Of a stretch of DNA of 42,912 nt, positions 21,235-42,842 are shown one piece after another. A program made the translations under genes and the position numbers. The stretch comes from Haloarculaceae archaeon. GTDB lineage: Archaea; Halobacteriota; Halobacteria; Halobacteriales; Haloarculaceae. How positions within the stretch are numbered: the first letter of the stretch is position 1; every line of letters begins with the position of its first letter. Location: assembly GCA_042217765.1 (NCBI GenBank), contig JBDGSB010000084.1, positions 1 to 42,912 of the forward strand. Direction: 5' to 3'. Under the pieces are notes generated by a model. That model was not told where the DNA came from. It saw nothing but the letters and a program-made list of their open reading frames with translations, and made no database searches.

Positions 21235-21334
21235 GACCCACAACTTCGCGCGGCGCGTAGAAAAACCCACACACAGGTCCCGCGATGCGGGAGCGTGCCG
21301 CGGAGTTATCAGTCTCGCCGGACAATACCGTGCC

Positions 21335-26074: not shown

Positions 26075-28150
26075 CTAGAGGTCCTCGACGGGCGTGTCGA
26101 GGGGCCTGGACATCTCGGCGTCGTCGAGGTGACACGCGACGCAGTGGCCGTTCTCGGCGTCGGTCGCTTCGAGGGAGGGCTCCTCGCGCTCGCAGACGTC
26201 GCCGATCTTCTGGGGACACCGTGTGTGGAACGAACACCCCGACGGCGGCTGGCGGGCGCTGGGAACGTCGCCTTCCAGCCGGAGGCGCGTGTCCTCGGCG
26301 TGGGGGTCCAGCGAGGGGATGCTCGACAGCAGCGAGCGCGTGTAGGGGTGATACGGCGGGTCGAACACCTCCTGGAGCGCCCCGCGTTCGATGATCTGCC
26401 CGAGGTACATCACCGCCAGCCGGTCGCAGATCGCTTCGATGACGCCCATGTCGTGGCTTATCAGCAGGTAGGAGGTATTGTACTCCTCGCGGAGGTCGTT
26501 CAGCAGGTTCAACACGTTTGCCTGGACGCTCACGTCCAGCGACGACACCGGTTCGTCGAGCACCACAAGCGACGGGTTGGGCGCGAACGCCCGTGCGATG
26601 GCGACGCGCTGTTGCTGGCCCCCCGAGAGTTCGTGGGGGTACTTCGCTCGCAGGTCCGCACCCAGGTTGACCTGTTCGAGCAACTCGTCGATGCGCTGGT
26701 CGCGCTCGTCCTCGTCGAGATCCGTGAACAGTTTCAGCGGCCGCGCGATGACGTTCTCGATGGTCTTTCGCGGGTTGATGCTCGCCTCGGGGTCCTGGAA
26801 GATGATCTGACACTCCGAGCGGAACTCCCGCATCTCCGATTTCGAGAATCCGCCGAGGTCCTCGCCCCGGTAGCGGACGGTCCCGTCGGTCGGTTCGTAG
26901 AGGTGCATCAACGTCCGCCCGAGCGTGCTCTTGCCACAGCCGCTCTCGCCGACCAGTCCGACCGTCTCGCCCTCGGCGATCGAGAGGTCGACGCCCTGGA
27001 CGGCCCTGACCGGGTGGTGGTCGCCGAGCAGGTTCTCGACGAACGTCCCCCGATCGTAGTGTTTGACGAGGTTCTCGGCTTCGATGATCGTCTCGCCCAC
27101 GTCGAGCGTTCGCGCCTCGCGCTCGCCGGTCTCGATGGGGTCGTCGACGGCCGTCTCCCAGTGCAGACACCGGGTGTCGTGGTCGTCCGAGACGGACGCC
27201 AACTCGACGTCGTCCGAGCGACACTCCTCGGTCGCGAATGCACACCGGTCGGCGAAGATGCATCCGTCGGGGATGTCCGCCAGTTCCGGGATCTGGCCGG
27301 GGATCGGCCGGAGATTCTTCTGTTTGCCCCGCTCGGGCGTGGTCGCGAGCAACGCCTGCGTGTAGGGGTTGGCCGGGTTGTCGAAGACGGCGTCGACGGG
27401 CCCTTGCTCCATCATCTTGCCCGCATAGAGGATGTTCACACGGTCGGCGATCTGGGAGACGACGGCCAGGTTGTGCGTAATCAGCAGGATGCCCACGTCG
27501 CCGGTCTTCAACTCCTCCATGAGGTCGAGCAACTTCGCCTGCGTGGTGACGTCCAGCCCCGTCGTCGGTTCGTCGAGGATGAGACAGTCGGGATCGCAGG
27601 ATAGCCCCATCGCGATGAGCGCACGCTGTTGTTGCCCGCCGGAGAGTTCGCTCGGGTAGCGATTCGAGAACTCTTCGGGGTCGGGGATGTTGACCTGGTC
27701 GAGGACCTCGTAGACGCGGTCCATGGCCTCTTGCTTGCCCGAGACGTCCTGGTGGAGGGTAATCGCCTCGCGGATCTGGGCCCCGATGCGGATGCTCGGA
27801 TTGAGCGCCCGCGAGGCGTTCTGGGCGACGTGGGCGATCTGGTTGCCCCGGATGTCGCGCAACTGCGCCGTCGAGAGGTCGTAGATGTCCTGGCCCTTGA
27901 ACTCGATGGACCCGTCGGCGATGCGGCCGTTCTCGTCGAGATAGCGGACGATGGCCAGCGCGAGCGTGCTCTTGCCGGAACCGGACTCGCCGACGATGCC
28001 CAGGGTCTCGCCTTTCTGCAGGCGCATCGAGACGTCCCGCAACGCTCGGAGTGTGCCGTGTTTGACCGTGAACTCGACGTCGAGCGAGTCGACCGACAGG
28101 AGGTCCTCGCTGGCGCGCTGGGTCGCGTCCATGGCTTGCTGGCTCATCAC
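26075..28150 (-). CDS. ABC transporter ATP-binding protein with duplicated NBDs (DppD/DppF-like fusion)
   Basis: 691 aa. Two Walker A sites (GESGSGKST, GESGCGKST), two LSGGQQQR signatures and C-terminal oligopeptide-type Cys motifs. Confidence 0.9.
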   Translation of the reverse strand: MMSQQAMDATQRASEDLLSVDSLDVEFTVKHGTLRALRDVSMRLQKGETLGIVGESGSGKSTLALAIVRYLDENGRIADGSIEFKGQDIYDLSTAQLRDIRGNQIAHVAQNASRALNPSIRIGAQIREAITLHQDVSGKQEAMDRVYEVLDQVNIPDPEEFSNRYPSELSGGQQQRALIAMGLSCDPDCLILDEPTTGLDVTTQAKLLDLMEELKTGDVGILLITHNLAVVSQIADRVNILYAGKMMEQGPVDAVFDNPANPYTQALLATTPERGKQKNLRPIPGQIPELADIPDGCIFADRCAFATEECRSDDVELASVSDDHDTRCLHWETAVDDPIETGEREARTLDVGETIIEAENLVKHYDRGTFVENLLGDHHPVRAVQGVDLSIAEGETVGLVGESGCGKSTLGRTLMHLYEPTDGTVRYRGEDLGGFSKSEMREFRSECQIIFQDPEASINPRKTIENVIARPLKLFTDLDEDERDQRIDELLEQVNLGADLRAKYPHELSGGQQQRVAIARAFAPNPSLVVLDEPVSSLDVSVQANVLNLLNDLREEYNTSYLLISHDMGVIEAICDRLAVMYLGQIIERGALQEVFDPPYHPYTRSLLSSIPSLDPHAEDTRLRLEGDVPSARQPPSGCSFHTRCPQKIGDVCEREEPSLEATDAENGHCVACHLDDAEMSRPLDTPVEDL

Positions 28151-29034
28151 TCGGCCCTCCCGCCGGCTTCGGTCCGCGGATCGAGCACGTCACGCAGGCC
28201 GTCGCCGAGCAGGTTCATCGCCATGATGGTCGACACGAGCGCGACGCTGGGCCACAGCAGGTACCACGGCGACGAGTACATGTAGACCCGCGCCTGCGAG
28301 ATCATGAATCCCCAGTCGGGGTGGGGCGGCCCGGCACCGAGACCGAGAAACGACAGGCTCGTCCCGATGAGGATGGCGTAGCCGACCCGGATGGAACCCT
28401 CGACGACGATGGGCGCGGTCACGTTCGGCAGGATCTCCCGGAAGAGGATGTGCGGCGTCGACTCGCCGCGGGCCTTCGCCGAGAGAACGTACGGTTCCTC
28501 GCTCTCGGAGAGGGTGGCCGACCGCGTGACGCGGGCGATCCGCGGCGTGAACACGATGCCGACCGCCAGCACCACGTTCACGAGACTCGATCCGAGCGCG
28601 ACCACCAACAGGATGCCCAGCAACAGCACCGGAATGCTCATCATGATGTCCATCAGCCGCATCAGCAGTTCGTCGGCGCGTCCCTTGACGTAGCCCGTGA
28701 ACAGGCCGATGGGGACGCCGAACAGAAGCGAGACCCCGGCGGCTCCGAACCCGAGCAACAGCGACTTCTGGCCGCCGACGATGGTCCGGGACAGCAGGTC
28801 CCGTCCGAGGTTGTCCGTGCCGAGCGGGTACTTCCCGCCCAGCCCGGCGAATCGGGCGGCCGGATGGGTGGCCAGCGGATCGTGGGGTGCGATGGACTTG
28901 CCGAGCGCCGTCAGGACGATGACGGGAATCAGAATCACCAGCGCCGTGACGACCTTCGGGTTCGTCAGCAGTCGTTTGACTATCGGTGGAACGTCGATAC
29001 CTCCGACCGTCGCAGTGGATTCTTCAGCAGCCAT
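28147..29034 (-). CDS. ABC transporter permease (DppC/OppC-like)
   Basis: 295 aa, six TM helices, BPD-transporter EAA-like loop. Its start overlaps the stop of the upstream permease and its stop overlaps the ATPase start. Confidence 0.9.
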   Translation of the reverse strand: MAAEESTATVGGIDVPPIVKRLLTNPKVVTALVILIPVIVLTALGKSIAPHDPLATHPAARFAGLGGKYPLGTDNLGRDLLSRTIVGGQKSLLLGFGAAGVSLLFGVPIGLFTGYVKGRADELLMRLMDIMMSIPVLLLGILLVVALGSSLVNVVLAVGIVFTPRIARVTRSATLSESEEPYVLSAKARGESTPHILFREILPNVTAPIVVEGSIRVGYAILIGTSLSFLGLGAGPPHPDWGFMISQARVYMYSSPWYLLWPSVALVSTIMAMNLLGDGLRDVLDPRTEAGGRAE

Positions 29035-30017
29035 TATTTCTCACCCAGTTCGATGCGGGGGTCGAGAACTGTGTACAGAAGGTCGGCGACGAGGTTCGCG
29101 AGGATGAACGCCATCGTCGGGACCAGGATGGCGGCCTGTATCACGGGCAAGTCCCGGCTCGAAATCGCTCGGACGATGACCCGGCCGATGCCGGGATAGG
29201 AGAAAATCTCCTCGATGATGACGACCGAGCCCATCATCCAGCCGAAGTTGATCGCCAGGACCGTAATCGTGGGCAACAGCCCGTTGCGTAAGGCGTGTCT
29301 GGCCAGGACGTTCGATTCGGCGACGCCTTTCAAGCGGGCCGTCCGAATGAAGTCCGCTTCGAGCGTCTCGATCATGGACGATCTGGTCTGGCGTAACACG
29401 TACGCGAAGATGACGAAGTTGATCGATATCGCGGGCAAGATGAGGTGATAGAGCCACCCGATCGGGTTCTCGCTCAGTGGGACGTACCCGCCGTTGGGAA
29501 AGAGGTTCAACGGCGGCGTCGTAAGGAACAGCAGTAACAGCGTCGCGCTGACGAACGAGGGGATGCTGATGGCGACGTACGACAGATTCAGCGACACCGT
29601 ATCGAATATCGAATCCCGCTTGGCGGCCGTCAGCACGCCCAGCGGAATCGCGATGATGATCGAGATGATCGTCGCGACCAGGGCCAGTTCGAGCGTGCGG
29701 AAAAACGCCGGAACCACGAGCTTCGACACCGGCTGCCCGGAGATGAGGCTAGTGCCCCAGTCGAACGTGAACGTGTGCAGGACGAAATCGATGTACCGTT
29801 CGTACAGTGGCCGCGTGAGCCCCATCTGTTGTTCGAGCTGGTGCATCGCCTCCTCGGTTCGTTGTGTCCCGAGTACGATGGTCGCTGCTGACCCGGGAAT
29901 CGCCGCGGTCATCCCGAAGACGATGCTTGCGATGGCGATTACTGAGATAATCGACACGACGATCCGTTTGGCGAGGTACAGTGTGTTGACCACGTCCAAT
30001 CCTTTCCCTTCCGGCAC
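29034..30017 (-). CDS. ABC transporter permease (DppB/OppB-like)
   Basis: 327 aa, six TM helices, conserved permease core. Confidence 0.9.
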   Translation of the reverse strand: MPEGKGLDVVNTLYLAKRIVVSIISVIAIASIVFGMTAAIPGSAATIVLGTQRTEEAMHQLEQQMGLTRPLYERYIDFVLHTFTFDWGTSLISGQPVSKLVVPAFFRTLELALVATIISIIIAIPLGVLTAAKRDSIFDTVSLNLSYVAISIPSFVSATLLLLFLTTPPLNLFPNGGYVPLSENPIGWLYHLILPAISINFVIFAYVLRQTRSSMIETLEADFIRTARLKGVAESNVLARHALRNGLLPTITVLAINFGWMMGSVVIIEEIFSYPGIGRVIVRAISSRDLPVIQAAILVPTMAFILANLVADLLYTVLDPRIELGEK

Positions 30018-30233
30018 CCTTATACCAGATAGTACAATAACCTTGTGGATAGGTCACACTCTATCCGTCAAATCACGACGACGTTCCGCTCGATGGCGGT
30101 CGAGAACGTCCCGTCGTCGAGCGGGACGGGCGGGAGTCGTTCCCACATCGTTAAGACGGGGCGACGAGTACCCGACGAGTATGTTCGAACAGAGGTTCGA
30201 GCCCAGCGTCGGTGCCGTGCCGACGGTGACACC

Positions 30234-31415
30234 ATGAGTCTGGTAGAGCTTCCCGACCGCGCGGACGTCGCGATCGTCGGTGGCGGCATCATGGGGACGA
30301 GCGCCGCGTACTTCCTGGCGACCGAGACCGACCGCGACGTCTTGCTGGTCGAGCGCGACAAAATCGCCGGCGGATCGACGGGCGACTCCTCGGCAATCTT
30401 GCGCCATCACTACGGCGACCAGGAGATATACTCGAAGATGGCGCGGTGGGGCCACGAGTTCTATCGCGCCTTCGAGGAACACGCCGGCGGCGACATCGCC
30501 TACGGGCGCGCGCCGATGGTGAACTTCGCGACCGACGACGACGCCGAGTGGATACAGGCGGGCTACGACGTCCTGTCGTCGCTCGACATCCCCGTCAGCC
30601 GGTACGAGGCGGACGAACTCGACGCCGAGTACCCGATGATCGAGACCGATTCGTTCGACTTCGCGGTCAGCGACGACGACTCGGGCTACTCCGACGGCAC
30701 CGACGCGGCCGGCGGACTGGCCCGCGCCGCGCAGGAGGCGGGCGCGACCGTCGTGACGGGCGTGACCGTCGAGGACGTGCGCGTCGAGGGCGGGACCGTC
30801 GCCGGCGTCGAGACGGACGCTGGCTCCGTCGACGCCGACGAGGTCGTCCTGGCGGCCGGCCCGTGGACGACGCGGCTGCTCGACGGACTGGGCGTCGACG
30901 TCCCGCTGTCGACGAGTCGCGAACAGATTCTCATTCTCGACCCGCCCGCGGACTTTCCGGACGACCACCTCGAAGACCTGCCGACCAGCGGGGCCGGCGG
31001 CGGCTGGTACATGCGGCCCGACTTCGGCGGCGGCGTGTTGCTCGCGACACACCACACCGGCGAGACGGTCGATCCCGACCACTACGACGAGACGCCCGAT
31101 CAGGAGACGCTGCTCGACCTCCTAGAGAAACTGGAAGGGTTCGCCCCCGGCCTCGCCGACGCCAAGATCAAAGGCGAGTACTGCGGCGTTTACACGACGA
31201 CGCCGGACCACGACTTCGTCATCGACCAGGCCGGACCCGACGGCTGCTATCTCGCCTGTGGCTTCTCCGGCCACGGCTTCAAGCACGGACCGACCGTCGG
31301 CAGGATTCTCTGTGACCTCGTGACGACCGGTGACACCGACCTCGTCGACGTCGACTACTTCTCGGTCGACCGTTTCGAGGACGACCCTCAGGGCCACGGC
31401 GTGCCCGACCACTAG
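30234..31415 (+). CDS. FAD-dependent oxidoreductase, DAO family (sarcosine oxidase beta / opine oxidase-like)
   Basis: 393 aa starting at the internal ATG. N-terminal FAD fingerprint DVAIVGGGIMGTSAAYFLA. C-terminal …ACGFSGHGFKHGPTVGRIL. Confidence 0.8.
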   Translation: MSLVELPDRADVAIVGGGIMGTSAAYFLATETDRDVLLVERDKIAGGSTGDSSAILRHHYGDQEIYSKMARWGHEFYRAFEEHAGGDIAYGRAPMVNFATDDDAEWIQAGYDVLSSLDIPVSRYEADELDAEYPMIETDSFDFAVSDDDSGYSDGTDAAGGLARAAQEAGATVVTGVTVEDVRVEGGTVAGVETDAGSVDADEVVLAAGPWTTRLLDGLGVDVPLSTSREQILILDPPADFPDDHLEDLPTSGAGGGWYMRPDFGGGVLLATHHTGETVDPDHYDETPDQETLLDLLEKLEGFAPGLADAKIKGEYCGVYTTTPDHDFVIDQAGPDGCYLACGFSGHGFKHGPTVGRILCDLVTTGDTDLVDVDYFSVDRFEDDPQGHGVPDH

Positions 31416-31516
31416 TCGGGACTCGCGGCGTCGGCCGCTTCGAGAACGTCGGGACTCGCGGCGTCGACCGCTTCGCGAACACCCCCTTGCGAAAGAAAAA
31501 CCCCTCGTGAGCGCGC

Positions 31517-33268
31517 TTATGGGTTCGGCCCCTTCGGCGCGTCGGGCGACAGGGCGGCGTCGTAGTTGAAGTCCTTGTTGGCGGCCGGACCGGGATCGAA
31601 GTGGCTGAGGTAGTCGTTGGACGCGGCCTGCTGGTCGAGGAAGCCGAAGATTATCCAGGCGTTGTCGAGGTGACTGATCCGCTGTGCCTTGGTGAACGCC
31701 TTCTGGAACGCCGGATCGCTAGTGGTCGTCGTACTGAACTTGTTGTACGCCTCGTGGTACTGCTCGTTGTCCCAGCGTCCGGAGTCCCACTTTGCGTCGG
31801 GCCCCAGCGCCAGCCGCGGAACGGTCGTCTGTTCCATCCGGGCCGCGTAGCCGCTGGCGTACCACTTCCCGTCCTGGTTCCAGTACTTCGACAGCCACGT
31901 GTCCGGGCTGACCAGTCGGATGTCGAACTCGATGCCGGCCTTTTTGGCCTGCTGCTGGAACAGTTTGACGCACGTACCACGGCGGGCCTGGAACTCGTTC
32001 TCGTAGATCGGGGTGGGCAGTTCGAGGCCGTCGCCGTAGCCCGCCTCTTCGAGCAACCCCTTGGCCTTCTCGGTCTGGGCGGTCGTGCCGAACTCGAGAC
32101 CCTCGTCGAAGTCCCCGTAGCCCGGATGAACCGGCGCGACGGGGTCGTGGTGGCCGATAGTCATGGTGCCGTCGGTCGCCGACACGATCTCCTCGCGGTC
32201 GAGCGCGTGCTTCATCGCCTGCCGAACTTTGAGCTTCGAGAACGGTTTGTCGCCGTTGTCGAGTTCCATGTTCGTCGTCATCACCATGCTCAGAAACGCC
32301 GAGGTCGAGTACTGGCGAACCGACGCGTTCCCGGCGTTTTCGATTCGGCTCCGGAGCGAGGGATCGAGCGTATTGATCACGTCCACGCGCTTGCCGGTGA
32401 GCGCGCTGGCCTGGGATACCGGGTCGGGGATGATCTTGGCCGTTATCTCGTCGAGATACGGCAGTTCCCGCCCCTCTCGCTCGATGTACCAGTCGTGTTT
32501 CTCGAAGTGGTACTGACTGTCCGATTCGTAGTCGGTCAGCGTGAACGGACCACTCCCGAAGTCCGTCGTGGAGAGTTCGTCGAAGCGGTTGTCGAGGATT
32601 TCCTTGGGGACGATGTTGAAGTAGCTCCCCGTTTCGCCGAGTCGCGCCGGGTAGAAGGGATCCTTTTTGGAGAGATTGATCGTGACCCGATGGTCGTCTT
32701 CGACGACCACAGGATTGTCCTTGTCGACTGCTCCGAGGTCGACCGAAGCACCGGGGACGCGGTCCTCCGAGAGCATGACTTCGACGGTCGCCTTGACGTC
32801 CTCGCCCAGCACCTTCTTGTCGATGTTCGCGAACTTGGCCTGGTCGGTCAGCATGAACGTCCACGCCGTCGTGTCGTCGTTGGGCTCCCAGTCCCTCGCG
32901 AGCCGCGGAACCGGTTCGTAGTCCCGGTTGTACCCGACCAGCCGGTCGTACATCAACTCGAAGAAGACGTAGTCTCCCTGACCGTCCCCGACGAACGGAC
33001 TGAGCGACTGTGGGGCGGCAATCGCCGTCGTCCGCAGGTGACCGCCCGGAATGATGTCCGGTCGTTCCGTCGTGGTTTCTTCGCCGCCACCGTTCCCTTG
33101 TGTTTCCTCCCCGCCGCCACCGCTGCTCTCTGTCGTGGTCTCTTCGCCGCCACCGCCCCCGCCGCCCATACAACCGGCGAGTGTGGCCGCACCGCCCGCC
33201 CCGAGCAACTTGAGGTAGGTTCGTCGGTCCGGTGATTCCTGACGCGTCAATGGGTCACTAGATCCCAT
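31517..33268 (-). CDS. ABC transporter substrate-binding protein, family 5 (OppA/DppA-like), Tat lipoprotein
   Basis: 583 aa starting at the ATG at 33268. Twin-arginine signal with a lipobox (DRRTYLKLLGAGGAATLAGC). Gly/Glu/Thr-rich linker. SBP-5 fold. Confidence 0.85.
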   Translation of the reverse strand: MGSSDPLTRQESPDRRTYLKLLGAGGAATLAGCMGGGGGGGEETTTESSGGGGEETQGNGGGEETTTERPDIIPGGHLRTTAIAAPQSLSPFVGDGQGDYVFFELMYDRLVGYNRDYEPVPRLARDWEPNDDTTAWTFMLTDQAKFANIDKKVLGEDVKATVEVMLSEDRVPGASVDLGAVDKDNPVVVEDDHRVTINLSKKDPFYPARLGETGSYFNIVPKEILDNRFDELSTTDFGSGPFTLTDYESDSQYHFEKHDWYIEREGRELPYLDEITAKIIPDPVSQASALTGKRVDVINTLDPSLRSRIENAGNASVRQYSTSAFLSMVMTTNMELDNGDKPFSKLKVRQAMKHALDREEIVSATDGTMTIGHHDPVAPVHPGYGDFDEGLEFGTTAQTEKAKGLLEEAGYGDGLELPTPIYENEFQARRGTCVKLFQQQAKKAGIEFDIRLVSPDTWLSKYWNQDGKWYASGYAARMEQTTVPRLALGPDAKWDSGRWDNEQYHEAYNKFSTTTTSDPAFQKAFTKAQRISHLDNAWIIFGFLDQQAASNDYLSHFDPGPAANKDFNYDAALSPDAPKGPNP

Positions 33269-33288
33269 GAAACGAGTTAACAAAGTGG

Positions 33289-33300
33289 AATATAATAAAT
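33289..33300 (-). promoter_or_regulatory. TATA-like box (ATTTATTATATT) 21-32 nt upstream of the SBP start codon
   Basis: An AT-rich element sits at the canonical spacing for a leaderless haloarchaeal transcript. Confidence 0.4.
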
Positions 33301-33509
33301 TTGTGGTGGTTGCAGACAATTGGCATATATGATGGGCCGGAACAAAGCCCCGCACACGATCGGAGGACGAACGACACCTCGCACGTGACAGCAACGAACG
33401 ACACCTGACGCGCGACGGTAGCGACACGAGGTCCGACGCGTACCCGTGTTCGAGCCGGCATCACGTCCGAACCAGTAGCTATTTTCCGCACAGTGCGTTA
33501 CTCCGACGT

Positions 33510-34754
33510 ATGAGCGGGCGTTCGGCCGACTGGTGGACGACGACGGGCGTCGTGAGCGTCGGCCACATGCTCTCGCACGTGTACGCGCTCACCTTGCCGC
33601 CGTTGTTTCCGCTGATGCGCGACGACCTGGGGTTTTCGAGCACCGGGTTCGGGATCCTCGTGGCCATGTTCGCCGTCGCGGGGCTGTTGCAGATGCCTCT
33701 GGGAAGCCTCGTCGACCGCATCGGCGCGAAGAAGGTCCTCGTCGCCGGAACCACGGTGCTCGCTGTCGGGATGGCGCTCATCGGCCTCGCACCGTCCTAT
33801 TCGGTGATGCTGGTCGTGACGCTGTTGGCCGGCGTCGGCCTCGCGACCTTTCATCCAGCCGACTACGCCCTCCTGACGGCCGTCTCGGACGCCGACTCGG
33901 AGTCGCGGGCGTTCAGTCTCCACCTGTTCGCCGGCTACGTCGGCTTCGCGATCACACCGGTCGCCGTCGGCGGCTTCGCGCTGGCGACGTCTTGGCGGCT
34001 GGCGCTGCTCGCAGTGGGAGCGATCGGACTCGTCTTCGCCGCCGTCGAGGCGCTCGTCCTCGACGACGCCTACCTCGACGAACTCGAATCCGGCGACGAG
34101 GAGTCGGACGACGAGGAATCGGACGACGCCTCGTTCATCGACGACCTGCGACTGCTCGCTCGCCCGACGATATTCGGCATGTTCCTGTTCATGTTGGTGC
34201 TGACGATCGGCAACAAGGGGCTGTCGACGTTCACGCCCGTGTTGATGGTCGACGGGTTCGGCCTCTCGAAGACGCTGGGCAACACCGCGTTGACGGCCTA
34301 TTTCGCCGTCGGGGCGCTCGCCATCCTCGTCGGCGGCACCCTCGCGGACCGGTACGACCCGCGGCGGGTGCTCGTCGTCGCCGTGACGGTCATCGGGGCG
34401 CTAGTGTGGGCGCTCGTCGGCGGCCCCCTCTCGGTGACGCCGGCCGTCGCGATCGGCGCGTTCGGACTGATGGGACTGCTACAGGGGGCGGCCGTCCCCT
34501 CGCGGGATCGGCTCGTGAGCGACTTCACTCCGGACGGCGCGGCCGGCAAGAGCTTCGGGTTCGTGCTGACGGCGATTTCGGTCAGCGGCCTTCTCGCGCC
34601 GCCGATACTGGGTGCGGTCATCGACGCCTGGTCGGTCTTCGCCGCCTTCGAGATCATGAGCGGGTTCTTCCTCGTCGCCGCGCTCGTCGCGCTGGCGCTC
34701 GGGAGTCGAACCGTTCGCGCCAGCGGAGGCGTCGCCCAGGCCCAGGAAGAATAA
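33510..34754 (+). CDS. MFS transporter
   Basis: 414 aa, 12 TM helices, MFS loop motif. A central acidic loop (ESGDEESDDEESDD). Confidence 0.8.
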   Translation: MSGRSADWWTTTGVVSVGHMLSHVYALTLPPLFPLMRDDLGFSSTGFGILVAMFAVAGLLQMPLGSLVDRIGAKKVLVAGTTVLAVGMALIGLAPSYSVMLVVTLLAGVGLATFHPADYALLTAVSDADSESRAFSLHLFAGYVGFAITPVAVGGFALATSWRLALLAVGAIGLVFAAVEALVLDDAYLDELESGDEESDDEESDDASFIDDLRLLARPTIFGMFLFMLVLTIGNKGLSTFTPVLMVDGFGLSKTLGNTALTAYFAVGALAILVGGTLADRYDPRRVLVVAVTVIGALVWALVGGPLSVTPAVAIGAFGLMGLLQGAAVPSRDRLVSDFTPDGAAGKSFGFVLTAISVSGLLAPPILGAVIDAWSVFAAFEIMSGFFLVAALVALALGSRTVRASGGVAQAQEE

Positions 34755-34764
34755 GCGTGCTCGC

Positions 34765-36105: not shown

Positions 36106-36160
36106 GACGCTTGGTATTCTCTCCCACTCATTTAATACCATACGGTGGAATACTGCCGGC

Positions 36161-37426
36161 ATGGCGCTCGGACCGACGCTCCCCGAAGAGACGGACATCC
36201 TGATCGTCGGCGGCGGAATCGTCGGCACCGCGACGGCGTTCTGGCTGTCGCGAAAGACCGACCGCGAGATGACGCTCGTCGACAAGGACAACGTCGCCGG
36301 CGGGGCGACCGGTGATTCCTCGGCCATCCTCCGGCACGTCTACGAGGACCGCCCGACGTACGCCGAGATGGCCTGGTGGAGTCACGAGTTCTACCGCGAC
36401 TTCGAGGACGAGACCGGCTACGAACTGTCGACGCCCGACCAGCCGCTGATCCAGTGGGGCGGTCCGGCCAGCGGCCACGAGGTGTCGCCGATGGTCGACT
36501 ACGAGACGCTACAGTCGCTCGACATCCCGGTGACGAGGTACGAGGCCGACGAGTTGCCCGCCCTGTTTCCGCTGTTCGAGTTCACCGACGGCTTCGAGTA
36601 CGCGGTCAGCGACGACGAAGCCGGCTACACCGAACCGGCGACCGCGGCCAACGGGTTCGCGAAGGCCGCCCAGGACAACGGCGCACGGGTCGTCACGGGC
36701 GTGGCCGTCGAATCGATCGACGCCGACGATGGGACGGTCGCCGGCGTCGAGACCGACGAGGGCTACATCGCCTGCGAGGACGTCGTCATCGCCGCGGGGT
36801 CGTGGTCGTACAAACTCGCCGCGACGGTCGACGTCGATCTCCCGATCACGCCCGAACGCGAACAGGCGCTCCTGCTCGACCCACCGGAGAACGTCTCCAA
36901 AGCGGAGCTCCGGTCGGTCCGCACGACCGGCCGCAGCAGCTCCAATCCGGACGGCGTCTGGTGGTACTTCCGGGCGGATTTCGGCGACACCATCTACATG
37001 GGAACCCACGCCCGCGCCGATTCCGTCGATCCCGACGACTACGACCGCACTCCCGACCAGAAACGCAAGGTCGAAGCCTTCGACATCCTCGACGAGTTCG
37101 CGCCGAAGCTCGCCGACTCGGAGATCGTCGGCGAGTTCTGCGGCGTCACCGCGAACACGCCCGACCAGGGATTCATCATCGACCAGGTCGGCCCCGACGG
37201 CCTGTACGCGCTGGTCGATGCCGGCCACGGATTCAAGCACGGCCCCGTCATCGGCCACCTCGGTGCCGACCTCGTCCTCGACGGCGAGAGCGACCTCTTC
37301 GACGTCGACCTGTTCACCGTCGACCGCTTCGACGATCGCTCGCCGAACCAGCCCCTCACCTACGACGACCCCGCCGAACTCCACCTGGCGACTGGCCGCA
37401 GCACGTCGTCCGACCACGGCGGGTAG
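36161..37426 (+). CDS. FAD-dependent oxidoreductase, DAO family (paralog of the 30234-31415 gene)
   Basis: 421 aa. DILIVGGGIVGTATAFWLS FAD motif. Colinear with the first DAO gene at ~45% identity (…AGHGFKHGPVIGHLGADLVL…). Confidence 0.8.
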   Translation: MALGPTLPEETDILIVGGGIVGTATAFWLSRKTDREMTLVDKDNVAGGATGDSSAILRHVYEDRPTYAEMAWWSHEFYRDFEDETGYELSTPDQPLIQWGGPASGHEVSPMVDYETLQSLDIPVTRYEADELPALFPLFEFTDGFEYAVSDDEAGYTEPATAANGFAKAAQDNGARVVTGVAVESIDADDGTVAGVETDEGYIACEDVVIAAGSWSYKLAATVDVDLPITPEREQALLLDPPENVSKAELRSVRTTGRSSSNPDGVWWYFRADFGDTIYMGTHARADSVDPDDYDRTPDQKRKVEAFDILDEFAPKLADSEIVGEFCGVTANTPDQGFIIDQVGPDGLYALVDAGHGFKHGPVIGHLGADLVLDGESDLFDVDLFTVDRFDDRSPNQPLTYDDPAELHLATGRSTSSDHGG

Positions 37427-37440
37427 AGCGGTTCCCCCAC

Positions 37441-37525
37441 CAGCACGTCGTTGGCCTACTCGGCCAGCACGTCGTTGGCCTACTCGGCCAGCACGTCGTT
37501 GGCCTACTCGGCCAGCACGTCGTTG
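37441..37525. repeat. 24-bp tandem repeat x3.5 (CAGCACGTCGTTGGCCTACTCGGC) duplicating the stop-codon region of the aminotransferase gene
   Basis: Each copy carries the terminal sense-strand GCCGAG TAG. The copies sit in the 3' UTR. Confidence 0.85.
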
Positions 37526-38586
37526 ATCGTCTCGACGGCGCGGCGGGTGCTCTCGGGAGTGCCACACGTGATGCGGATGCAGCCATCGGCGTTCCAGGGC
37601 GGGTCCGCACAGTCCCTGACGATGACGCCGCGTTCCTCGCAGGCCCGCGCGATCGCCGCGGAGTCGCCGACCTCGGCGAGCAGGAAGTTCGACGCGCTCT
37701 CCCAGGTCCGGGCGTCGAGTTCGTCGTGCATGTACGCCCGCGACCAGCGGACGAGTTCGACGCTCTCCCGGACGTGCTCGTCGTCGTCCAGAGCCGCCAG
37801 GCCGGCCCGGCAGGCGAGTTCACTGACCGCGAACGGCGAGTTGACGTGGTCGTAGGCGTCGGCCCACACGCCGGGCACCAGCGCGTACCCTACGCGAATG
37901 CCGGCCAGTCCGTAGACCTTCGAGAACGTCCGGAGGACGGCCACGTCGTCACGGTCGTCGAGCAGTGACCGGGCGCTGGGCGCGTCGGTGAACTCCCCGT
38001 AGGCCTCGTCAACGACCAGCAGGGTGTCGTCGTCGAGTCGCTCCCGCAGCGTCCGGATCTCGGCCATCGGCATCTCGCTGCCGGTCGGGTTGTGCGGCGT
38101 CGTCACGAAGACGAACCGCTCGCCGTCGTAGGCGTCCAGTACCCGATCGGCGGTCTGCGCCCAGTCGTCGTCCTTCCGGAGCGCGTACCGGCCGCCCACG
38201 GTTCCGTTGTGGTAGTGTGCGCCCTTCGGGTAGTAGGGGTAGCCGGGGTCGGGCGTCAGTATCTCCTCGCCGGGATCGAGTACGGCACGGTAGAGGTAAT
38301 CGAGCGCGCCGTTGGCACCGGGTCCGAGCCAGACCTGTTCCGGCGGGAGGTCCCACCGCCGCGCGAGGGCCTCGGTGAGGTCGGTGTGGGCCGTCGTCGG
38401 ATAGACGTTCGCGCGCGCGGCCGTCGTCCGCATGGCTTCGACGGCCTTCGGGCTCGGGCCGAGGGCGTTCTCGTTCGACGAGAGCTTCACGTAGTCGTCG
38501 GGCGACCCGCCGCGTTCGCGTGCGATCTCTTCCGGACCGCCGCCGGGCCGATAGACGCCGTGGTCCGAGAGGTCTCTCGGGTCCAT
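37504..38586 (-). CDS. class I/II PLP-dependent aminotransferase (HisC-like)
   Basis: 360 aa starting at the internal ATG. LSSNENALGPSP and the …TFSKVYGLAGIRVGY PLP-lysine region. Its start is 1 nt from the stop of the MttB-like gene. Confidence 0.8.
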   Translation of the reverse strand: MDPRDLSDHGVYRPGGGPEEIARERGGSPDDYVKLSSNENALGPSPKAVEAMRTTAARANVYPTTAHTDLTEALARRWDLPPEQVWLGPGANGALDYLYRAVLDPGEEILTPDPGYPYYPKGAHYHNGTVGGRYALRKDDDWAQTADRVLDAYDGERFVFVTTPHNPTGSEMPMAEIRTLRERLDDDTLLVVDEAYGEFTDAPSARSLLDDRDDVAVLRTFSKVYGLAGIRVGYALVPGVWADAYDHVNSPFAVSELACRAGLAALDDDEHVRESVELVRWSRAYMHDELDARTWESASNFLLAEVGDSAAIARACEERGVIVRDCADPPWNADGCIRITCGTPESTRRAVETINDVLAE

Positions 38587-38587
38587 C

Positions 38588-40036
38588 TCAATGCAGAATT
38601 TCCTCGCGTTTGTCTTCGACGTAGCGGTCGAGGTCGTTGCGGATGTCCTCGTCCATCGGCGGCCGTTCGTACTCCTCGACCAGCGTCTGCACCCGCTCGT
38701 GGGCACGCTCGAAGGCGGTCTTCGCGCCGTCGTTCTCCCAGTTGTCGTAGGAGTCGCGATAGGACAGTTCGGGAATCAGGAAGTTCTCCTGGGAGTATTC
38801 GAGCGTGTGGCGCTTGTTGAGGAAGTGGTCGGCGGGGTCGATCTCCTCGATGAGGTCGAGCGCGAAGGAGTCCTCGTCGAGGTCGAACCCGGCGGCGAAC
38901 CGCTGGAGGTACCGGATGCGGTCGCAATCGAGGACGAACTTCTCCGGCGAGGACGTCGAGTAGGAGTCCATGATGCCGACGCCGTGGGAGACGTAATCGA
39001 TGCCGCTGAAGAGGGTCACGAACAGCTGTAACATCGCCTCGGACCCGGCCTGATCGTCGACCGTCTTCGAGTCGTTGAGTCCGCCGCCGGCCCGCGAGGG
39101 GACGTCGTAGTAGCGGGCCATCTGGCCGGCCAGCGAGACGAACAGCGCGCCCTCGGGACTACCGATCGAGAACGAGCCGTACCGGATGTCGATGTTCGAG
39201 GTCGGCAGGCCGTAGACGATCGGCGTCCCGCGATTGACCGACTGTGCGATGACGTTGCCCGCCAGGATTTCGGCGTTGGCCAGGGCCATCGACCCCGCGA
39301 TTGCCGCCGGGCCGGACGCCGACGCCATCACGGCGGGCGCGAGGATGACCGGCTGTTCCATCCGGGCGTGCTGGAGGATACCGCCGGTCATCTTCGTGTC
39401 CCACGTGCGCGGCGAGACGCTGTTTGCGTTGCCGATGAGGTAGTAGTCGTCGAGATCGGGGTCGTCGTGCGCGATGCCGACCATCTCGGCCGCGCGTCGC
39501 GCGCGGTCCTCGCCGTAGCAGTTGCTGCCGGGTAGCTTGTCGGTCATCTGGAGGGTGCGGTTCTGGGTCTCCAGGTAGGCCACGCTCTCGTCGTAGTCGG
39601 TCGGGACGCACACTTCCGTGCCCGCAGTCGTGACGACGTCTTCCATCTGCGTTATCTTCTGAAATAACTCGAAGTCCTCCATGACCGAGGGCCGCCGGCC
39701 GCCGTCGTAGGTCAGCACGTTCGGCGGGCCGGCCGCCGTCGAGATGACGTGGCCGTCCGCCCCGAGCGTCTGGTCCGGCTGGGAGCCCCGACCGCGGACG
39801 GTGAACGTCGAAGGGGCCGCGTCGATACAGTCCTCGACCAGGTCGGGTGGGAACGTGACCACGTTGCTCTCTTCGTCGACCGTGCAGCCGTTTGCCGCGA
39901 GTAACTGCCGCGCGTCCTCGTGCCCGACGCGAATGCCCATCTCCTCGAGGATGGTGAGCGACTTCTCGTGCATGAGATCCTCTCCCTCGGGAGGCAACCT
40001 GTCGAGGTACGGGACGTCCAGTGTCTCTAAGCTCAT
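38588..40036 (-). CDS. MttB-superfamily (trimethylamine/quaternary-amine methyltransferase-like) protein, no pyrrolysine
   Basis: 482 aa. N-terminal …MHEKSLTILEEMGIRVGHEDARQLLAANGCTVDEESNVVTFPPDLVEDCIDAAPSTFTVRGRG matches the MttB family. The protein length matches a TIM barrel. Confidence 0.75.
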   Translation of the reverse strand: MSLETLDVPYLDRLPPEGEDLMHEKSLTILEEMGIRVGHEDARQLLAANGCTVDEESNVVTFPPDLVEDCIDAAPSTFTVRGRGSQPDQTLGADGHVISTAAGPPNVLTYDGGRRPSVMEDFELFQKITQMEDVVTTAGTEVCVPTDYDESVAYLETQNRTLQMTDKLPGSNCYGEDRARRAAEMVGIAHDDPDLDDYYLIGNANSVSPRTWDTKMTGGILQHARMEQPVILAPAVMASASGPAAIAGSMALANAEILAGNVIAQSVNRGTPIVYGLPTSNIDIRYGSFSIGSPEGALFVSLAGQMARYYDVPSRAGGGLNDSKTVDDQAGSEAMLQLFVTLFSGIDYVSHGVGIMDSYSTSSPEKFVLDCDRIRYLQRFAAGFDLDEDSFALDLIEEIDPADHFLNKRHTLEYSQENFLIPELSYRDSYDNWENDGAKTAFERAHERVQTLVEEYERPPMDEDIRNDLDRYVEDKREEILH

Positions 40037-40096
40037 CCTGTAGAGAACGGACCGGGTGGCCCATAGATGTTTCCCGCGAACGGGCCACGGTGTGTG

Positions 40097-40666
40097 TCAC
40101 TCGACCCGCCGACGGAGCAACTCGGTGAACGTCTCCTGAGACTGGTGTGCAACGCCCGCTAGCGCCGTCGCGTTCAGGTACACGGTGAAGTCCATCTTCG
40201 GAGCCGTCAGTTCGAGGCGATCGCCGTCGCCCGTTTCAACCTCGCTGACGACGACGTGGGCGAACTCGTTGGTGACTTCGACGAGGCGAGTCGTCGTCGG
40301 GTCTTCGGTCGTTCCGCCAGGCCCGTCGTCCGGGTCACTCGTCGCCACGACGTCGGCCGGATCACTCGTCGCCACGACGTCGGCTGGGTCGCCGTCGCGA
40401 GCGGTCGTATCGACGTCGTGCAGGAACGACCGGTAGGTGTCGCGGTCCTGCCAGGTCAGGCTTTCCAGCGCGACCGCGTCCAGCCGGACGCTCGCGTCCC
40501 GCTCGGTCGATTCAAGTTCGAGCCGAGTTCCCTTCGGCGTCTCGACCTCCCTGACGGCGATCGTCGCGTCGCGTCCCGACACCGTCGCGAGCGGTCGTAT
40601 CGACGTCTTCCCGGGGGGATCGGAACTCGCGTTGGTGTCGGTCGGCGCGTCGGTGTCGTCGGTCAT
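40097..40666 (-). CDS. hypothetical protein with an internal two-fold duplication
   Basis: 189 aa. Halves are related (IAVREVETPKGTRLELESTERDASVRLDAVALESL versus AHVVVSEVETGDGDRLELTAPKMDFTVYLNATALAGV). It contains an in-frame 27-bp tandem duplication (DPADVVATS x2). Its ATG overlaps the stop of the Rieske beta subunit. Confidence 0.55.
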   Translation of the reverse strand: MTDDTDAPTDTNASSDPPGKTSIRPLATVSGRDATIAVREVETPKGTRLELESTERDASVRLDAVALESLTWQDRDTYRSFLHDVDTTARDGDPADVVATSDPADVVATSDPDDGPGGTTEDPTTTRLVEVTNEFAHVVVSEVETGDGDRLELTAPKMDFTVYLNATALAGVAHQSQETFTELLRRRVE

Positions 40667-41172
40667 ACGAAAAACGAGAGGTTTCGGGTCCCGAGGACGG
40701 TCTGGTCGAGAAACACTGTTCGCGTCGCCAGTTCGAGTCCGTCGTCGGTCCTTCGCAGGGTATCCCGGCGCTCACAGGAGATGACGTCCTCCTCGGTCGT
40801 CTCGCCCTGGTTCCGGTACAGCAGGACGTTACTCCTGACGTCGATTTCGTCGCCATCGACCGACGCGACCCGGACGTTGGTGACGAAGTGCCGGAGACGC
40901 GACGGGGGGTTCTCCGCCCAGGCGTACTCCTTGTCGAAGCGTTTCACGCGCGTCTCCAGGGTGCCTCTGTCCTCGCGGTAGAGGTAGCTATCGTCGCTGA
41001 ACTCCGATTTCTCGGCCCCGCGCTCCCTGGTAACGCGGCGAGGGATTCGGTAGTCGACGTCGTCGGCCAGCAGGTCGAGCCACTCGTGGAGACGGCCGTC
41101 GTCGAGACACTCGGCTTCCCGGTACAGGAACTGCTCACACTCTAGACGGAGTTCGAGGTGCGATTCCGTCAT
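40663..41172 (-). CDS. ring-hydroxylating dioxygenase beta subunit (NTF2/SnoaL-like fold)
   Basis: 169 aa. …CEQFLYREAECLDDGRLHEWLDLLADDVDY… is typical of Rieske oxygenase small subunits. It lies 4 nt downstream of the alpha subunit. Confidence 0.75.
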   Translation of the reverse strand: MTESHLELRLECEQFLYREAECLDDGRLHEWLDLLADDVDYRIPRRVTRERGAEKSEFSDDSYLYREDRGTLETRVKRFDKEYAWAENPPSRLRHFVTNVRVASVDGDEIDVRSNVLLYRNQGETTEEDVISCERRDTLRRTDDGLELATRTVFLDQTVLGTRNLSFFV

Positions 41173-41176
41173 CGTC

Positions 41177-42532
41177 TCACCCGATCCGCTGGCCGGTCAT
41201 CGTCCGGTACCAGCTGTCGTAGAACGTTCGGAGCGTCCCGTCCTCGAAGTTCGTCTCGTAGACCGTTCCCGGGCCGGGCCAGCTATCGCCGAGTTCCTCG
41301 AAGTCGGCCATGTCGTCCATGCCCATCTGGTAGTTGCCCGTCGGCTCGTTGGTCTTCGCGAACGTGCTGCCAGCGGCCTCGGCGATGCCGTCCCAGACGG
41401 CGAAGTCGTCGACTTCGAAGTTCCCGGCGACGCTGAACGTGGAGATGCCGGCGTCGTAGGCCTGTTGTTTGAACTCCTCGGACGCGTTGCTGGGCACGAG
41501 CATCCAGTTCCAGACTTCCGTCCGGTCGGGGCCGAGAGGCCGCCACTTCCGGACGTTGAGGAAGCTCGCCAGGTCCCGATTGTCGGGATCCGGCGTAAAG
41601 GGAGCTTGCAGGAGCGAGCAGTTCGGGAAGATGGTTCCGACGAAGTCGATGAGTCCTTGTGCCAGTTCGTACTGGTCCCGCGATACGTGGTCGTCGGTGT
41701 AGGGAACCTCCGGGTAGCCGGGCGCGCGTTCGTCCTCGAAGTAGGCGACGAGCGCCGAGTGGCCGCTACAGTCGGTGACGTCTACCCCGGTCCGCTGGGA
41801 GCGCTCGCCCGACAGTTCGGGCGGGAACAGTTCCAGGTCCAGTACGGACTGGTGGGTCGCCGGCGTGTGGTAGGAGTCGCCCGTGAAGTTGTCCGCGCCG
41901 ATCTTCCAGTTCGTGTCGATCTCCCACCGTATCGGCTCGCCGACGACCTCGAGCCCCCCGTCGACGGCCTCGAACAGCAAGTCGAGGTACCACGTGAACT
42001 CGCCCAGGTACTCCGCCAGCGGCGGTGCCTCTTCCGACAGGGTCGCGAAGACCAGGCCGCCGTAGTCGTCGACCTGTGGCGCGGGTCGCAGGGAGTGCTC
42101 GCACGTATCGAGGTCCTGAAAACACTGGTTCTTTCGCGGGACGCCGACCAGTTCGCCCGTATTCTTGTACGTCCAGTTGTGGTACGGACACCGGAAGTGC
42201 GTCGTGTTGCCCTGTTCGGCACGAACGACGGTCGTCCCCCGATGGCGACACGAGTCGAACAGGACCCGGATTTCCCCGTTCTCGTCGCGGACGAAGATGA
42301 AGGGACTGTCGCCGACGTACCGTTTGGCGTAGTCGCCGGGTTCCGGAATCTCCGTCTCGTGGCCGACGAGAATCCACGACCGACCGAACACGCGTTCCAG
42401 TTCCAGGTCGTGTATCTCGCGGTCGTTGTGAATACGTTTCGGTAGCTTTCCCGTCTCGGTTATCTCGCCGGCCTGTTCGATGAGGTTTCGAACCCTCTCC
42501 GGCGGGTGTTGATCCGTGCCACCACTGCTCAT
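41177..42532 (-). CDS. Rieske [2Fe-2S] non-heme-iron oxygenase alpha subunit
   Basis: 451 aa from the ATG at 42532. The longer ORF to 42565 would include the TATA box. Rieske motif CRHRG-x17-CPYHNW. The C-terminal catalytic domain has His/Asp ligands. Confidence 0.85.
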   Translation of the reverse strand: MSSGGTDQHPPERVRNLIEQAGEITETGKLPKRIHNDREIHDLELERVFGRSWILVGHETEIPEPGDYAKRYVGDSPFIFVRDENGEIRVLFDSCRHRGTTVVRAEQGNTTHFRCPYHNWTYKNTGELVGVPRKNQCFQDLDTCEHSLRPAPQVDDYGGLVFATLSEEAPPLAEYLGEFTWYLDLLFEAVDGGLEVVGEPIRWEIDTNWKIGADNFTGDSYHTPATHQSVLDLELFPPELSGERSQRTGVDVTDCSGHSALVAYFEDERAPGYPEVPYTDDHVSRDQYELAQGLIDFVGTIFPNCSLLQAPFTPDPDNRDLASFLNVRKWRPLGPDRTEVWNWMLVPSNASEEFKQQAYDAGISTFSVAGNFEVDDFAVWDGIAEAAGSTFAKTNEPTGNYQMGMDDMADFEELGDSWPGPGTVYETNFEDGTLRTFYDSWYRTMTGQRIG

Positions 42533-42562: not shown

Positions 42563-42615
42563 CATCGGTCAACCGTCGTGGTAGTGTTCAGATACGCAGA
42601 AGCGCTCACGAACAG

Positions 42616-42722: not shown

Positions 42723-42842
42723 CTGATCCAAACAGTGACTCTCGATCTCTTATCTGAACAGTGCTACCGTCGTGATCTCGCCGTCGCGAGGAACACACCG
42801 TCAGTGGTCCTCATCGTCGCGAGAAACGGGCCAGGAGTAAGG

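Follow-up and report, generated by a model that had tools for sequence, protein, structure and literature searches.

A haloarchaeal gene island predicted to catabolize a bulky N-methylated amino acid, possibly a histidine betaine

Introduction

The first 42,912 nucleotides (nt) of contig JBDGSB010000084.1 of a Haloarculaceae archaeon (assembly GCA_042217765.1), referred to here as the window, carry between positions 26075 and 42532 an island in which an MttB-superfamily methyltransferase gene is found together with genes for two flavin oxidases (DAO1 and DAO2), an aminotransferase, a Rieske oxygenase and an ATP-binding cassette (ABC) importer with its solute-binding protein (SBP). This raises the question of which compound is broken down by the encoded enzymes. 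The original prediction was that the island degrades an N-methylated amine, such as glycine betaine, carnitine, proline betaine, sarcosine or an opine, with the help of two different classes of demethylases. We propose instead that it is used for the catabolism of a bulky, carboxylated amino acid that is methylated on its alpha nitrogen, the likeliest candidate being a betaine of the N-alpha-trimethylhistidine type, namely hercynine or possibly ergothioneine or a ring-modified relative, and we regard this proposal as evenly balanced between right and wrong. Three rival readings, which we rate lower, are considered below. Each of the enzyme families involved is known, whereas their combination and the predicted substrate are new.

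Results

Protein families were assigned using Pfam and NCBIfam profile scores, and structural relatives were identified by sequence matches to the Protein Data Bank (PDB). The methyltransferase gene (38588..40036, minus strand) is an uninterrupted 482-amino acid (aa) open reading frame (ORF) without an in-frame amber codon. Its product matches PF06253 with 420 bits over profile positions 28-499 of 500, and by these sequence features it classifies as a non-pyrrolysine quaternary-amine methyltransferase of the MttB superfamily. It can be aligned over its full length with MtgB from Desulfitobacterium hafniense (PDB 2QNE/9YCE, 325 bits, 36% identity). In the glycine betaine site of MtgB, Y97 and F356 provide cation-pi interactions and R312 and H348 bind the carboxylate, and a Y97A substitution increases the Km for glycine betaine from 0.88 to 320 mM, approximately 360-fold (PMC13080624). 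Residues Y97, F356, R312 and H348 correspond in our alignment to A102, Y359, R315 and H351 of the window protein, giving an 'A/G-R-H-Y' pocket. Without an aromatic residue at the Y97 position, the protein lacks the published glycine betaine motif of MtgB, and because the carboxylate clamp formed by Arg and His and one aromatic residue are kept while Y97 is replaced with Ala, we infer from this one position that the substrate would be a carboxylated quaternary amine that is bulkier than glycine betaine. Among 120 haloarchaeal homologues, Ala or Gly is found at the Y97 position throughout the nearest clade (at least 58% identity, with a few exceptions carrying Val or Ser), including every Rieske-linked copy, whereas more distant haloarchaeal paralogues mostly keep Y-R-H-Y.

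The pocket bears directly on the idea, taken over from the original prediction, that a small osmolyte betaine (glycine betaine, carnitine, proline betaine or sarcosine) is degraded by a Rieske N-demethylase and an MttB demethylase. The relatedness to MtgB with the retained R312, H348 and one aromatic position would fit such a substrate, as would the sarcosine oxidase-like enzymes of the island and the dimethylglycine dehydrogenase (DMGDH)-like genes found in related loci. Brines are also rich in glycine betaine. However, the exchange of Tyr97 for Ala is crippling for glycine betaine in MtgB, haloarchaea possess other paralogues with the canonical Y-R-H-Y pocket, the importer is of the Dpp/Opp type and not of the BCCT or OpuA type, and the aminotransferase and the linkage to histidine-catabolic (hut) genes would be left unexplained. 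Glycine betaine, carnitine and sarcosine are therefore unlikely substrates and, with the properties of the Rieske oxygenase described below also speaking against it, we rate this the least probable of the readings considered here.

A second line of evidence for a bulkier substrate comes from gene neighbourhoods. At least nine independent contigs, recovered from other samples or other organisms, again bring orthologues of window genes together (loci L085, L087/88, L090-L094, L098, L173 and L174; identities of 63-84% for MttB, 69-81% for DAO2, 65-66% for DAO1, 66% for the SBP and 64-77% for the permeases and ATPase), and the island genes are clustered more than expected by chance. In L173, from the cultured species Halomicrococcus gelatinilyticus, the genes code for a DMGDH-like protein, a lyase, an amidohydrolase, a hydantoinase-like enzyme, HutU, MttB, an SBP, permeases, an ATPase and a MetE-like protein. 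The orthologues in L174 (MttB 76%, DAO2 69%, SBP 66% and DAO1 65% identity) are located directly after a canonical operon of hutH, hutI, a gene for a 311-aa protein and hutU, with an HVO_A0563-type regulator. L090 (Rieske alpha subunit 75%, MttB 70%) contains genes for a DMGDH-like protein, a lyase, two amidohydrolases, urocanase, MttB, a DAO, an SBP, a second DAO, permeases, an ATPase and a Rieske module consisting of a small accessory protein and the beta and alpha subunits. In L091 and L092 (MttB 84% and 80%), a Rieske module (alpha-beta-small) and MttB are accompanied by a HisC-like aminotransferase, the DAO2 orthologue, a protein resembling thiamine pyrophosphate-dependent 2-oxoacid decarboxylases, a DMGDH-like protein, DsrE and a DAO. 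MttB is found in L093, L094 and L098 beside DAO2, SBP and DAO1 orthologues or is directly followed by SBP and permease genes; the latter arrangement is present in L094, L098 and L173 and extends to the fused ATPase gene in L098 and L173, whereas L094 ends after the permeases.

The remaining loci are centred on the Rieske module. L085 (alpha 81%) comprises genes for a DMGDH-like protein, a ferredoxin, an archaeal MetE-like protein, a RACo protein, a DUF1638 protein, MtrH, a lyase, a corrinoid protein, the alpha-beta-small module, the fused ATPase, permeases, the DAO1 orthologue, an SBP-like protein, an OCD protein and an HTH_10 regulator. L089 (alpha 77%) carries a ferredoxin gene, alpha-beta-small and genes for a corrinoid protein, MtrH, DUF1638, RACo and a MetE-like protein, and L087/88 (alpha 76%) the DAO1 orthologue, permeases, ATPase and alpha-beta-small. 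The corrinoid protein of L085 passes the model TIGR02370 for methyltransferase-cognate corrinoid proteins and resembles MtgC, and other proteins of this locus are recognized by NCBIfam as an MtgA/MtrH-like methyltransferase, an AcsV/RamA-like (RACo) activator and an archaeal methionine synthase-like protein. In L085 and L089, the Rieske module hence has genes for a corrinoid protein, a methylcorrinoid:tetrahydrofolate methyltransferase and a reductive activator as neighbours. None of these is encoded in the window, and the corrinoid partners of the window MttB are probably encoded elsewhere. The recurring neighbourhoods, together with a list of parts that resembles MtgBCDE systems, indicate that the island is a recurring functional unit. 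In this respect the original prediction has held up: the region can be regarded as a coherent island for the catabolism of an N-methylated amine or betaine, equipped with MttB, two sarcosine oxidase-like enzymes, an aminotransferase and a dedicated importer.

The neighbours also point to histidine. The flank of MttB is visible in six loci, and in all six it contains either hut genes (L090, L173 and L174) or a gene for a HisC-family aminotransferase (window, L091 and L092). The window aminotransferase gene (37504..38586, minus strand) codes for a class I/II enzyme and is translationally coupled to MttB with a gap of 1 nt; the same pair is present in L091 and L092. Its product passes the hisC model TIGR01141 (304.5 bits, cutoff 276.55), and histidinol-phosphate aminotransferases account for its top eight PDB matches and for 11 of 12 overall, the exception being 4r2n, a putative phenylalanine aminotransferase. 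By score it is a HisC-family member, with histidine and histidinol phosphate as candidate substrates. The HutU proteins of MttB-linked loci pass TIGR01228 (817-952 bits) and fail the thiourocanate hydratase models, and the hydantoinase-like enzyme fails the cutoff for ErtD (195 versus 600 bits). As the urocanases score as HutU proteins and not as thiourocanate hydratases, we prefer hercynine over ergothioneine. A different hint is given by sulfur-handling genes in or beside Rieske-linked loci, which code for DsrE in L091 (11060-11422) and L092 (10895-11257) and for a fusion of rhodanese and metallo-beta-lactamase domains in L089 (11451-12563); the Rieske-free loci L173 and L174 showed no such genes. 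They could point to a thione, for instance ergothioneine, as the substrate and are unexplained if hercynine is preferred.

The lyases encoded in L085, L090, L173 and L005 have lost the Ala-Ser-Gly triad of the methylidene-imidazolone (MIO) cofactor through a deletion of three residues, but keep the 'QED' motif of the Glu414 type found in histidine ammonia-lyase (HAL), and some of the associated lyases also keep His83. The MIO triad is present in the lyases of L174, L006 and Haloferax mediterranei. Absence of MIO is a hallmark of trimethylammonia-lyases that act on ergothioneine or histidine betaine (bioRxiv 10.64898/2026.04.22.720169; 10.1101/2025.08.13.670108). We rejected an identity of the associated lyases as ergothionases, since their similarity to HAL is far greater than that to the ergothionase 6S7J (89-188 bits), and for the same reason only the MIO-less signature was retained as evidence. 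Diphthine and diphthamide, which contain a trimethylammonio-carboxypropyl histidine, were also considered as substrates and set aside, as MIO-less HAL-type lyases are better suited to N-alpha-trimethyl substrates.

The Rieske module itself is connected with histidine catabolism in some genomes. It forms one operon with hutH in H. mediterranei, on plasmid pHM300 (HFX_RS16095-16110), and in Haloarchaeobius, it adjoins a hut operon in Halorubrum glutamatedens, and in three cultured species the module and a gene for an NhaC-family transporter are flanked by HVO_A0563-type regulators. The lyase HFX_RS16110 of H. mediterranei (L002/L175), which is annotated as HutH, and that of L040 keep the MIO triad but carry Asn in place of the imidazole-binding His83 of HAL (Ser-Asn versus Ser-His), and judging from this exchange such lyases may act on a ring-modified histidine.

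The two flavin oxidases and the importer would be suited to an N-methylated amino acid. DAO1 (30234..31415, plus strand) resembles FAD-dependent monomeric sarcosine oxidase (MSOX) and N-methyl amino acid oxidases and matches PF01266 with 235 bits; it scores 180 bits with the NCBIfam model soxA_mon and 177 bits with that for N-methyl-L-tryptophan oxidase (MTOX), both under cutoff. DAO2 (approximately 36161..37426, plus strand), a second sarcosine oxidase-like enzyme with only about 28% identity to DAO1, matches PF01266 with 143 bits and the MTOX model, again under cutoff, with 150 bits. The top PDB match of both is MSOX (137 and 108 bits, respectively), and with a full-length DAO fold closest to MSOX and MTOX both can be placed by sequence comparison in the monomeric sarcosine oxidase/N-methyl amino acid oxidase family. 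DAO1 orthologues are located beside the importer genes every time (L085, L087/88, L093 and L174), and DAO2 orthologues adjoin MttB in L091, L092, L093 and L174.

The importer genes, all on the minus strand, code for a fused DppD/DppF-type ATPase with two ABC_tran and two oligo_HPY domains (26075..28150), a DppC/OppC-like permease (28147..29034, BPD_transp_1 and OppC_N), a DppB/OppB-like permease (29034..30017, BPD_transp_1 and BPD_transp_1_N) and a family-5 solute-binding lipoprotein (31517..33268, SBP_bac_5, 191 bits). The N-terminus of the latter, MGSSDPLTRQESPDRRTYLKLLGAGGAATLAGC, contains a twin-arginine motif of a Tat (twin-arginine translocation) signal followed by a LAGC lipobox. Orthologues of the fused ATPase (69-74% identity) adjoin MttB or the Rieske module in L085, L087/88, L090, L098 and L173, those of the two permeases in related loci show 67-77% and 64-73% identity, respectively, and SBP orthologues with 66% identity are present in L093 and L174. 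The opine substrate that had also been suggested found no specific support; the SBP scores 65 bits with the staphylopine binder model, for which the cutoff is 800.

The Rieske oxygenase is not of the kind that was expected. The gene for the alpha subunit (41177..42532, minus strand; Rieske and Ring_hydroxyl_A domains) is followed after 4 nt by that for a beta subunit (40663..41172, minus strand), so that the enzyme does not share the alpha-only composition of the GbcA/CntA/Stc2 group. Alpha matches aromatic ring-hydroxylating dioxygenases in the PDB over its full length (residues 23-447), with 355 bits for Rhodococcus naphthalene dioxygenase (NarAa/NDO, 2B1X), 285 bits for phthalate 3,4-dioxygenase and approximately 220-233 bits for biphenyl and benzene dioxygenases, whereas Stc2 (3VCA), CntA (6Y8J) and 4QUP, deposited as 'Monoxygenase; demethylase', match only its N-terminal Rieske domain (residues ~30-245, 84-86 bits). 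The NCBIfam scores are 240 bits for HcaE and 126 bits for GbcA, the latter covering only the N-terminal part and having a cutoff of 670. Beta matches PF00866 (Ring_hydroxyl_B) with 138 bits and passes the HcaF-like model PRK10069 (179 bits, cutoff 145). The Rieske ligands C95, H97, C115 and H118 and the iron ligands H222, H227 and D375/D376 are invariant in 16 alpha orthologues. As its catalytic domain does not align with those of GbcA, CntA and Stc2 and a beta subunit is present, the enzyme is, by sequence, an aromatic-type ring-hydroxylating oxygenase (alpha3beta3 type) and not a demethylase of that group. The claim that both demethylase classes are present has thus to be given up, and the structural half of what the original prediction had set against itself, a Rieske enzyme grouping with aromatic-ring dioxygenases and having a beta subunit, is what we found.

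An oxygenase of the naphthalene/biphenyl/HcaEF type would be expected if the substrate were a betaine of a benzenoid or indole amino acid or another N-methylated aromatic amino acid (hypaphorine, tyrosine betaine or phenylalanine betaine), in which case MttB and the oxidases would demethylate it, the HisC-like enzyme would act as an aromatic aminotransferase and the Rieske oxygenase would attack the benzene or indole ring. Bacterial relatives of the Rieske clade lie in aromatic-degradation clusters, as in Mycolicibacterium, where the cluster is of the classic type, the oxidases score on the MTOX model, the HisC family includes phenylalanine aminotransferases (4r2n) and the enlarged MttB pocket could take up any bulky betaine. 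Nevertheless, we consider an aromatic amino acid betaine unlikely, since the MttB clade has genes for urocanase, imidazolonepropionase and HutH-type lyases as conserved neighbours rather than genes of an aromatic-ring pathway, the linked lyases keep the HAL-type Glu414 motif and in some cases His83, and the window contains no genes for an extradiol dioxygenase, a dihydrodiol dehydrogenase or ring cleavage.

The Rieske module includes a third component, which had been described as a duplicated small protein. The duplication is real, but there are not two genes: a single 189-aa ORF (40097..40666, minus strand) codes for two homologous halves that form an internal tandem repeat. The protein matches no Pfam or NCBIfam family and all its homologues are labelled 'hypothetical'. 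With a family hidden Markov model, the domain was found in approximately 79 ORFs across the collected Rieske loci. A single domain of ~75 aa is present in the bacteria sampled (Mycolicibacterium, Nocardia, Gordonia, Streptomyces, Paenibacillus and Chloroflexota; by phylum Actinomycetota, Bacillota, Chloroflexota and Acidobacteriota), whereas it is tandem-duplicated in haloarchaea. In Mycolicibacterium, the gene lies between those for beta and ferredoxin in a typical aromatic-degradation cluster. The family is small, with only 339 cluster representatives among 1.84 billion proteins, and the best 80 species-representative genomes with a relative of alpha all keep the alpha-beta-small arrangement. 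From its sequence and distribution, we regard the protein as a conserved and so far undescribed accessory of this Rieske oxygenase clade. Its linker (40334-40387, minus strand) contains a 9-aa tandem duplication, DPADVVATS, which is missing from all 19 homologues, suggesting that it arose recently by slippage within a disordered region. The window contains no 2Fe-2S ferredoxin gene; such a gene adjoins alpha in L089, and it lies at a distance of ~8 kb in L085 and of ~3 kb, on the upstream side, in H. mediterranei.

All genes listed in the original prediction are present at the coordinates given there. The 13 ORFs between 26075 and 42532 have the GC distribution over codon positions that is typical of real haloarchaeal genes and give clear family matches, although several gene starts, including that of DAO1, are set downstream of the longest-ORF start. 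Besides the genes described above, the island contains a gene for a major facilitator superfamily (MFS) transporter (33510..34754, plus strand; MFS_1, 172 bits), for which no orthologue was found in related loci, and one for an MmgE/PrpD-family protein (34765 to approximately 36141, minus strand; MmgE_PrpD_N and MmgE_PrpD_C domains), which scores far under the PrpD equivalog cutoffs of NCBIfam and is absent from every related locus examined. It is uncertain whether these two belong to the pathway.

Upstream of the alpha start, nested inverted repeats span 42578-42767, with perfect 16-nt arms at 42624-42639 and 42695-42710 flanked by two outer pairs, and a perfect 22-nt tandem repeat is found at the window edge (42858-42901). 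The repeats upstream of alpha might act in regulation or as a terminator, or represent a small mobile element. The window is of haloarchaeal origin, as indicated by a TFIIB gene and a high GC content at third codon positions, and it gave no match in a megablast search against plasmids. The rest of it (1-26 kb) is unrelated to the island and codes for a histidine kinase, an AAA ATPase, a P-type ATPase, a PhaC-like protein and EamA transporters. The region 14983-16730 contains the gene for the PhaC-like alpha/beta hydrolase (PhaC_N and Abhydrolase_1), preceded by that for a 219-aa protein without family, and a gene for a CBS-MaoC dehydratase follows at 21224-22267; these look like a haloarchaeal polyhydroxyalkanoate gene set. 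In a 138-aa ORF (14565-14981 and 13925-14224), similarity to short-chain dehydrogenases is confined to their C-terminal half (profile positions 85-181 of 236), and the ORF is probably a truncated or frameshifted gene of that family. Finally, the sole content of positions 1-2300 is a 104-aa fragment with a single TFIIB repeat, and the GC content of the first 2 kb is 0.56-0.57 compared to ~0.65; this stretch may be a gene remnant or foreign DNA.

Discussion

What we present here on protein families, motifs, operon organization and conserved linkage is observed, and from it we infer each step of the following route. The betaine would be imported by the Tat-dependent lipoprotein SBP and the Dpp-like ABC system. 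MttB would then transfer the first methyl group to a corrinoid protein encoded outside the window, with partners of the kind seen in relatives (MtgA/MtrH-like, RACo/RamA-like, DUF1638 and core-MetE-like proteins). The second and third methyl groups could be removed oxidatively by the two MSOX-like flavoenzymes, to which relatives add a DMGDH-like enzyme. The freed amino acid might next be transaminated by the HisC-like enzyme to a 2-oxo acid of the imidazole-pyruvate type; relatives may add a 2-oxoacid decarboxylase-like enzyme to this step or use the Hut pathway instead. In the last and least certain step, the Rieske alpha/beta oxygenase and its tandem-domain accessory protein would oxygenate a (hetero)aromatic ring or a ring substituent, be it by oxygenation of the imidazole-acid ring, by ring N-demethylation or by oxidation of the thione. 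One might speculate further that the MttB clade represents the first hercynine:corrinoid methyltransferase and that the Rieske enzyme with its tandem-domain partner is an imidazole or 2-thioimidazole ring oxygenase, which desulfurizes ergothioneine to hercynine, N-demethylates ring-methylated histidine or opens the imidazole ring. Together, the two enzymes would then provide haloarchaea with an O2- and B12-dependent route for compounds of the ergothioneine family, of which our literature searches revealed no example; in this specific form we regard the idea as tentative and rather improbable.

Several points weigh against a histidine betaine as substrate. Its assignment derives entirely from neighbours in other genomes. 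Family scans of the window ORFs revealed no lyase, urocanase, corrinoid protein, ferredoxin or reductase, and as none of the Hut/Ert pathway genes (lyase, urocanase-type hydratase or ring amidohydrolase) was found there, the window itself does not classify with these pathways; the window ends at a distance of 380 nt from alpha, on its upstream side. Loci such as L090 and L173, in which MttB occurs together with a trimethylamine-eliminating lyase, would be redundant if there were a single substrate. HisC-family enzymes also serve aromatic amino acids, and we know of no family-5 binding protein that acts as a betaine binder. The Rieske clade is ancestrally aromatic and the role of the oxygenase is not explained. 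MttB, the aminotransferase and PrpD were found beside alpha in none of the 80 best species-representative genomes, and L173 and L174 contain MttB and hut genes without any Rieske gene within 10 kb; the oxygenase would accordingly be an optional extension rather than part of the core. The MFS transporter and the MmgE/PrpD protein are likewise not conserved partners.

Some of these points would be accounted for if the island were a mosaic of independent modules, with the Rieske oxygenase acting on an aromatic compound, the importer and oxidase on peptides or opine-like secondary amines and MttB on some betaine, brought together by plasmid-like shuffling. The lack of a Rieske gene in L173 and L174 and of MttB in the 80 genomic Rieske loci and the restriction of PrpD and MFS to the window would be expected in this case, module order and orientation vary among the loci, and in L091 a gene on the opposite strand separates the Rieske module from MttB. 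On the other hand, alpha, beta, the small protein, MttB and the aminotransferase form a tightly packed minus-strand operon in the window, with successive gaps or overlaps of 4, -4, 60 and 1 nt, six independent loci have genes for methyl transfer, oxidases or importers next to a member of the Rieske clade (at least 75% identity), and importer genes directly follow MttB in three loci. We therefore think it improbable, more so than a benzenoid or indole betaine, that the genes are neighbours without a common function.

A histidine betaine pathway of this kind would differ from each of the systems it resembles. The aerobic MtgB-MtgC-MtgD(-MtgE) system of Ruegeria pomeroyi, with RamA and DUF1638, also uses a pfam06253 methyltransferase in an aerobe, and the closest relatives of the island likewise carry a corrinoid protein, an MtrH/MtgA-like pterin methyltransferase, a homocysteine methyltransferase-like protein, a RACo/RamA activator and DUF1638 (PMC12478193). 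The island, however, is archaeal and has an MttB protein without the Tyr97 aromatic residue and no corrinoid protein in the window. A further difference is its linkage to genes for a Rieske oxygenase, a HisC-like aminotransferase, a Dpp-like importer and the catabolism of histidine. The substrate class would be shared with the trimethylammonia-lyases of histidine betaines, that is ergothionase (Treponema denticola 6S7J and Shewanella SO_3057) and histidine betaine lyase (Swoo_3913 and SO_3299), and MIO-less homologues lie beside Rieske and/or MttB genes in L085, L090, L173 and L005. Yet these haloarchaeal lyases are only distantly related to 6S7J, and the window, which has no lyase, would strip the methyl groups one by one with MttB and the oxidases before transamination. 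Three successive N-demethylations, MSOX-like oxidases and, in relatives, DMGDH-like proteins are also reminiscent of the conversion of glycine betaine via dimethylglycine and sarcosine to glycine by DMGDH and MSOX, but the window oxidases score only ~108-137 bits with MSOX, remain under all NCBIfam cutoffs and have a context that points to a larger amino acid. With the aromatic dioxygenases (2B1X, phthalate 3,4-dioxygenase and HcaEF), the oxygenase shares alpha3beta3-type subunits, the Rieske CxH...CxxH motif and the 2-His-1-carboxylate ligands; it differs in its methylamine/histidine-catabolic context, the tandem-duplicated accessory protein and the absence of dihydrodiol dehydrogenase, ring-cleavage, ferredoxin and reductase genes from the window. 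GbcA, CntA and Stc2 resemble it in the N-terminal Rieske domain only (84-126 bits), and differ in the catalytic domain and by the beta subunit encoded in the window.

Our literature searches revealed no paper that joins hercynine to MttB or ergothioneine degradation to a Rieske oxygenase, and nothing relevant on haloarchaeal MttB and betaines. The question could be addressed in two cultured organisms, H. gelatinilyticus, which possesses MttB, a MIO-less lyase and hutU, and H. mediterranei with its Rieske alpha-beta-small-hutH operon. The residue at the Tyr97 position, which separates haloarchaeal paralogues with Tyr or Phe, likely glycine betaine enzymes, from the Ala/Gly clade described here, could further serve as a simple marker for metagenome annotation. 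Ergothioneine and hercynine are widespread microbial metabolites, the known breakdown of which begins with the elimination of trimethylamine. If our proposal is correct, the stepwise, cobalamin-dependent demethylation of a histidine betaine would represent a new substrate class for the MttB superfamily and a route that does not release trimethylamine. It would also extend the recently recognized aerobic MtgBCD-type systems to archaea.

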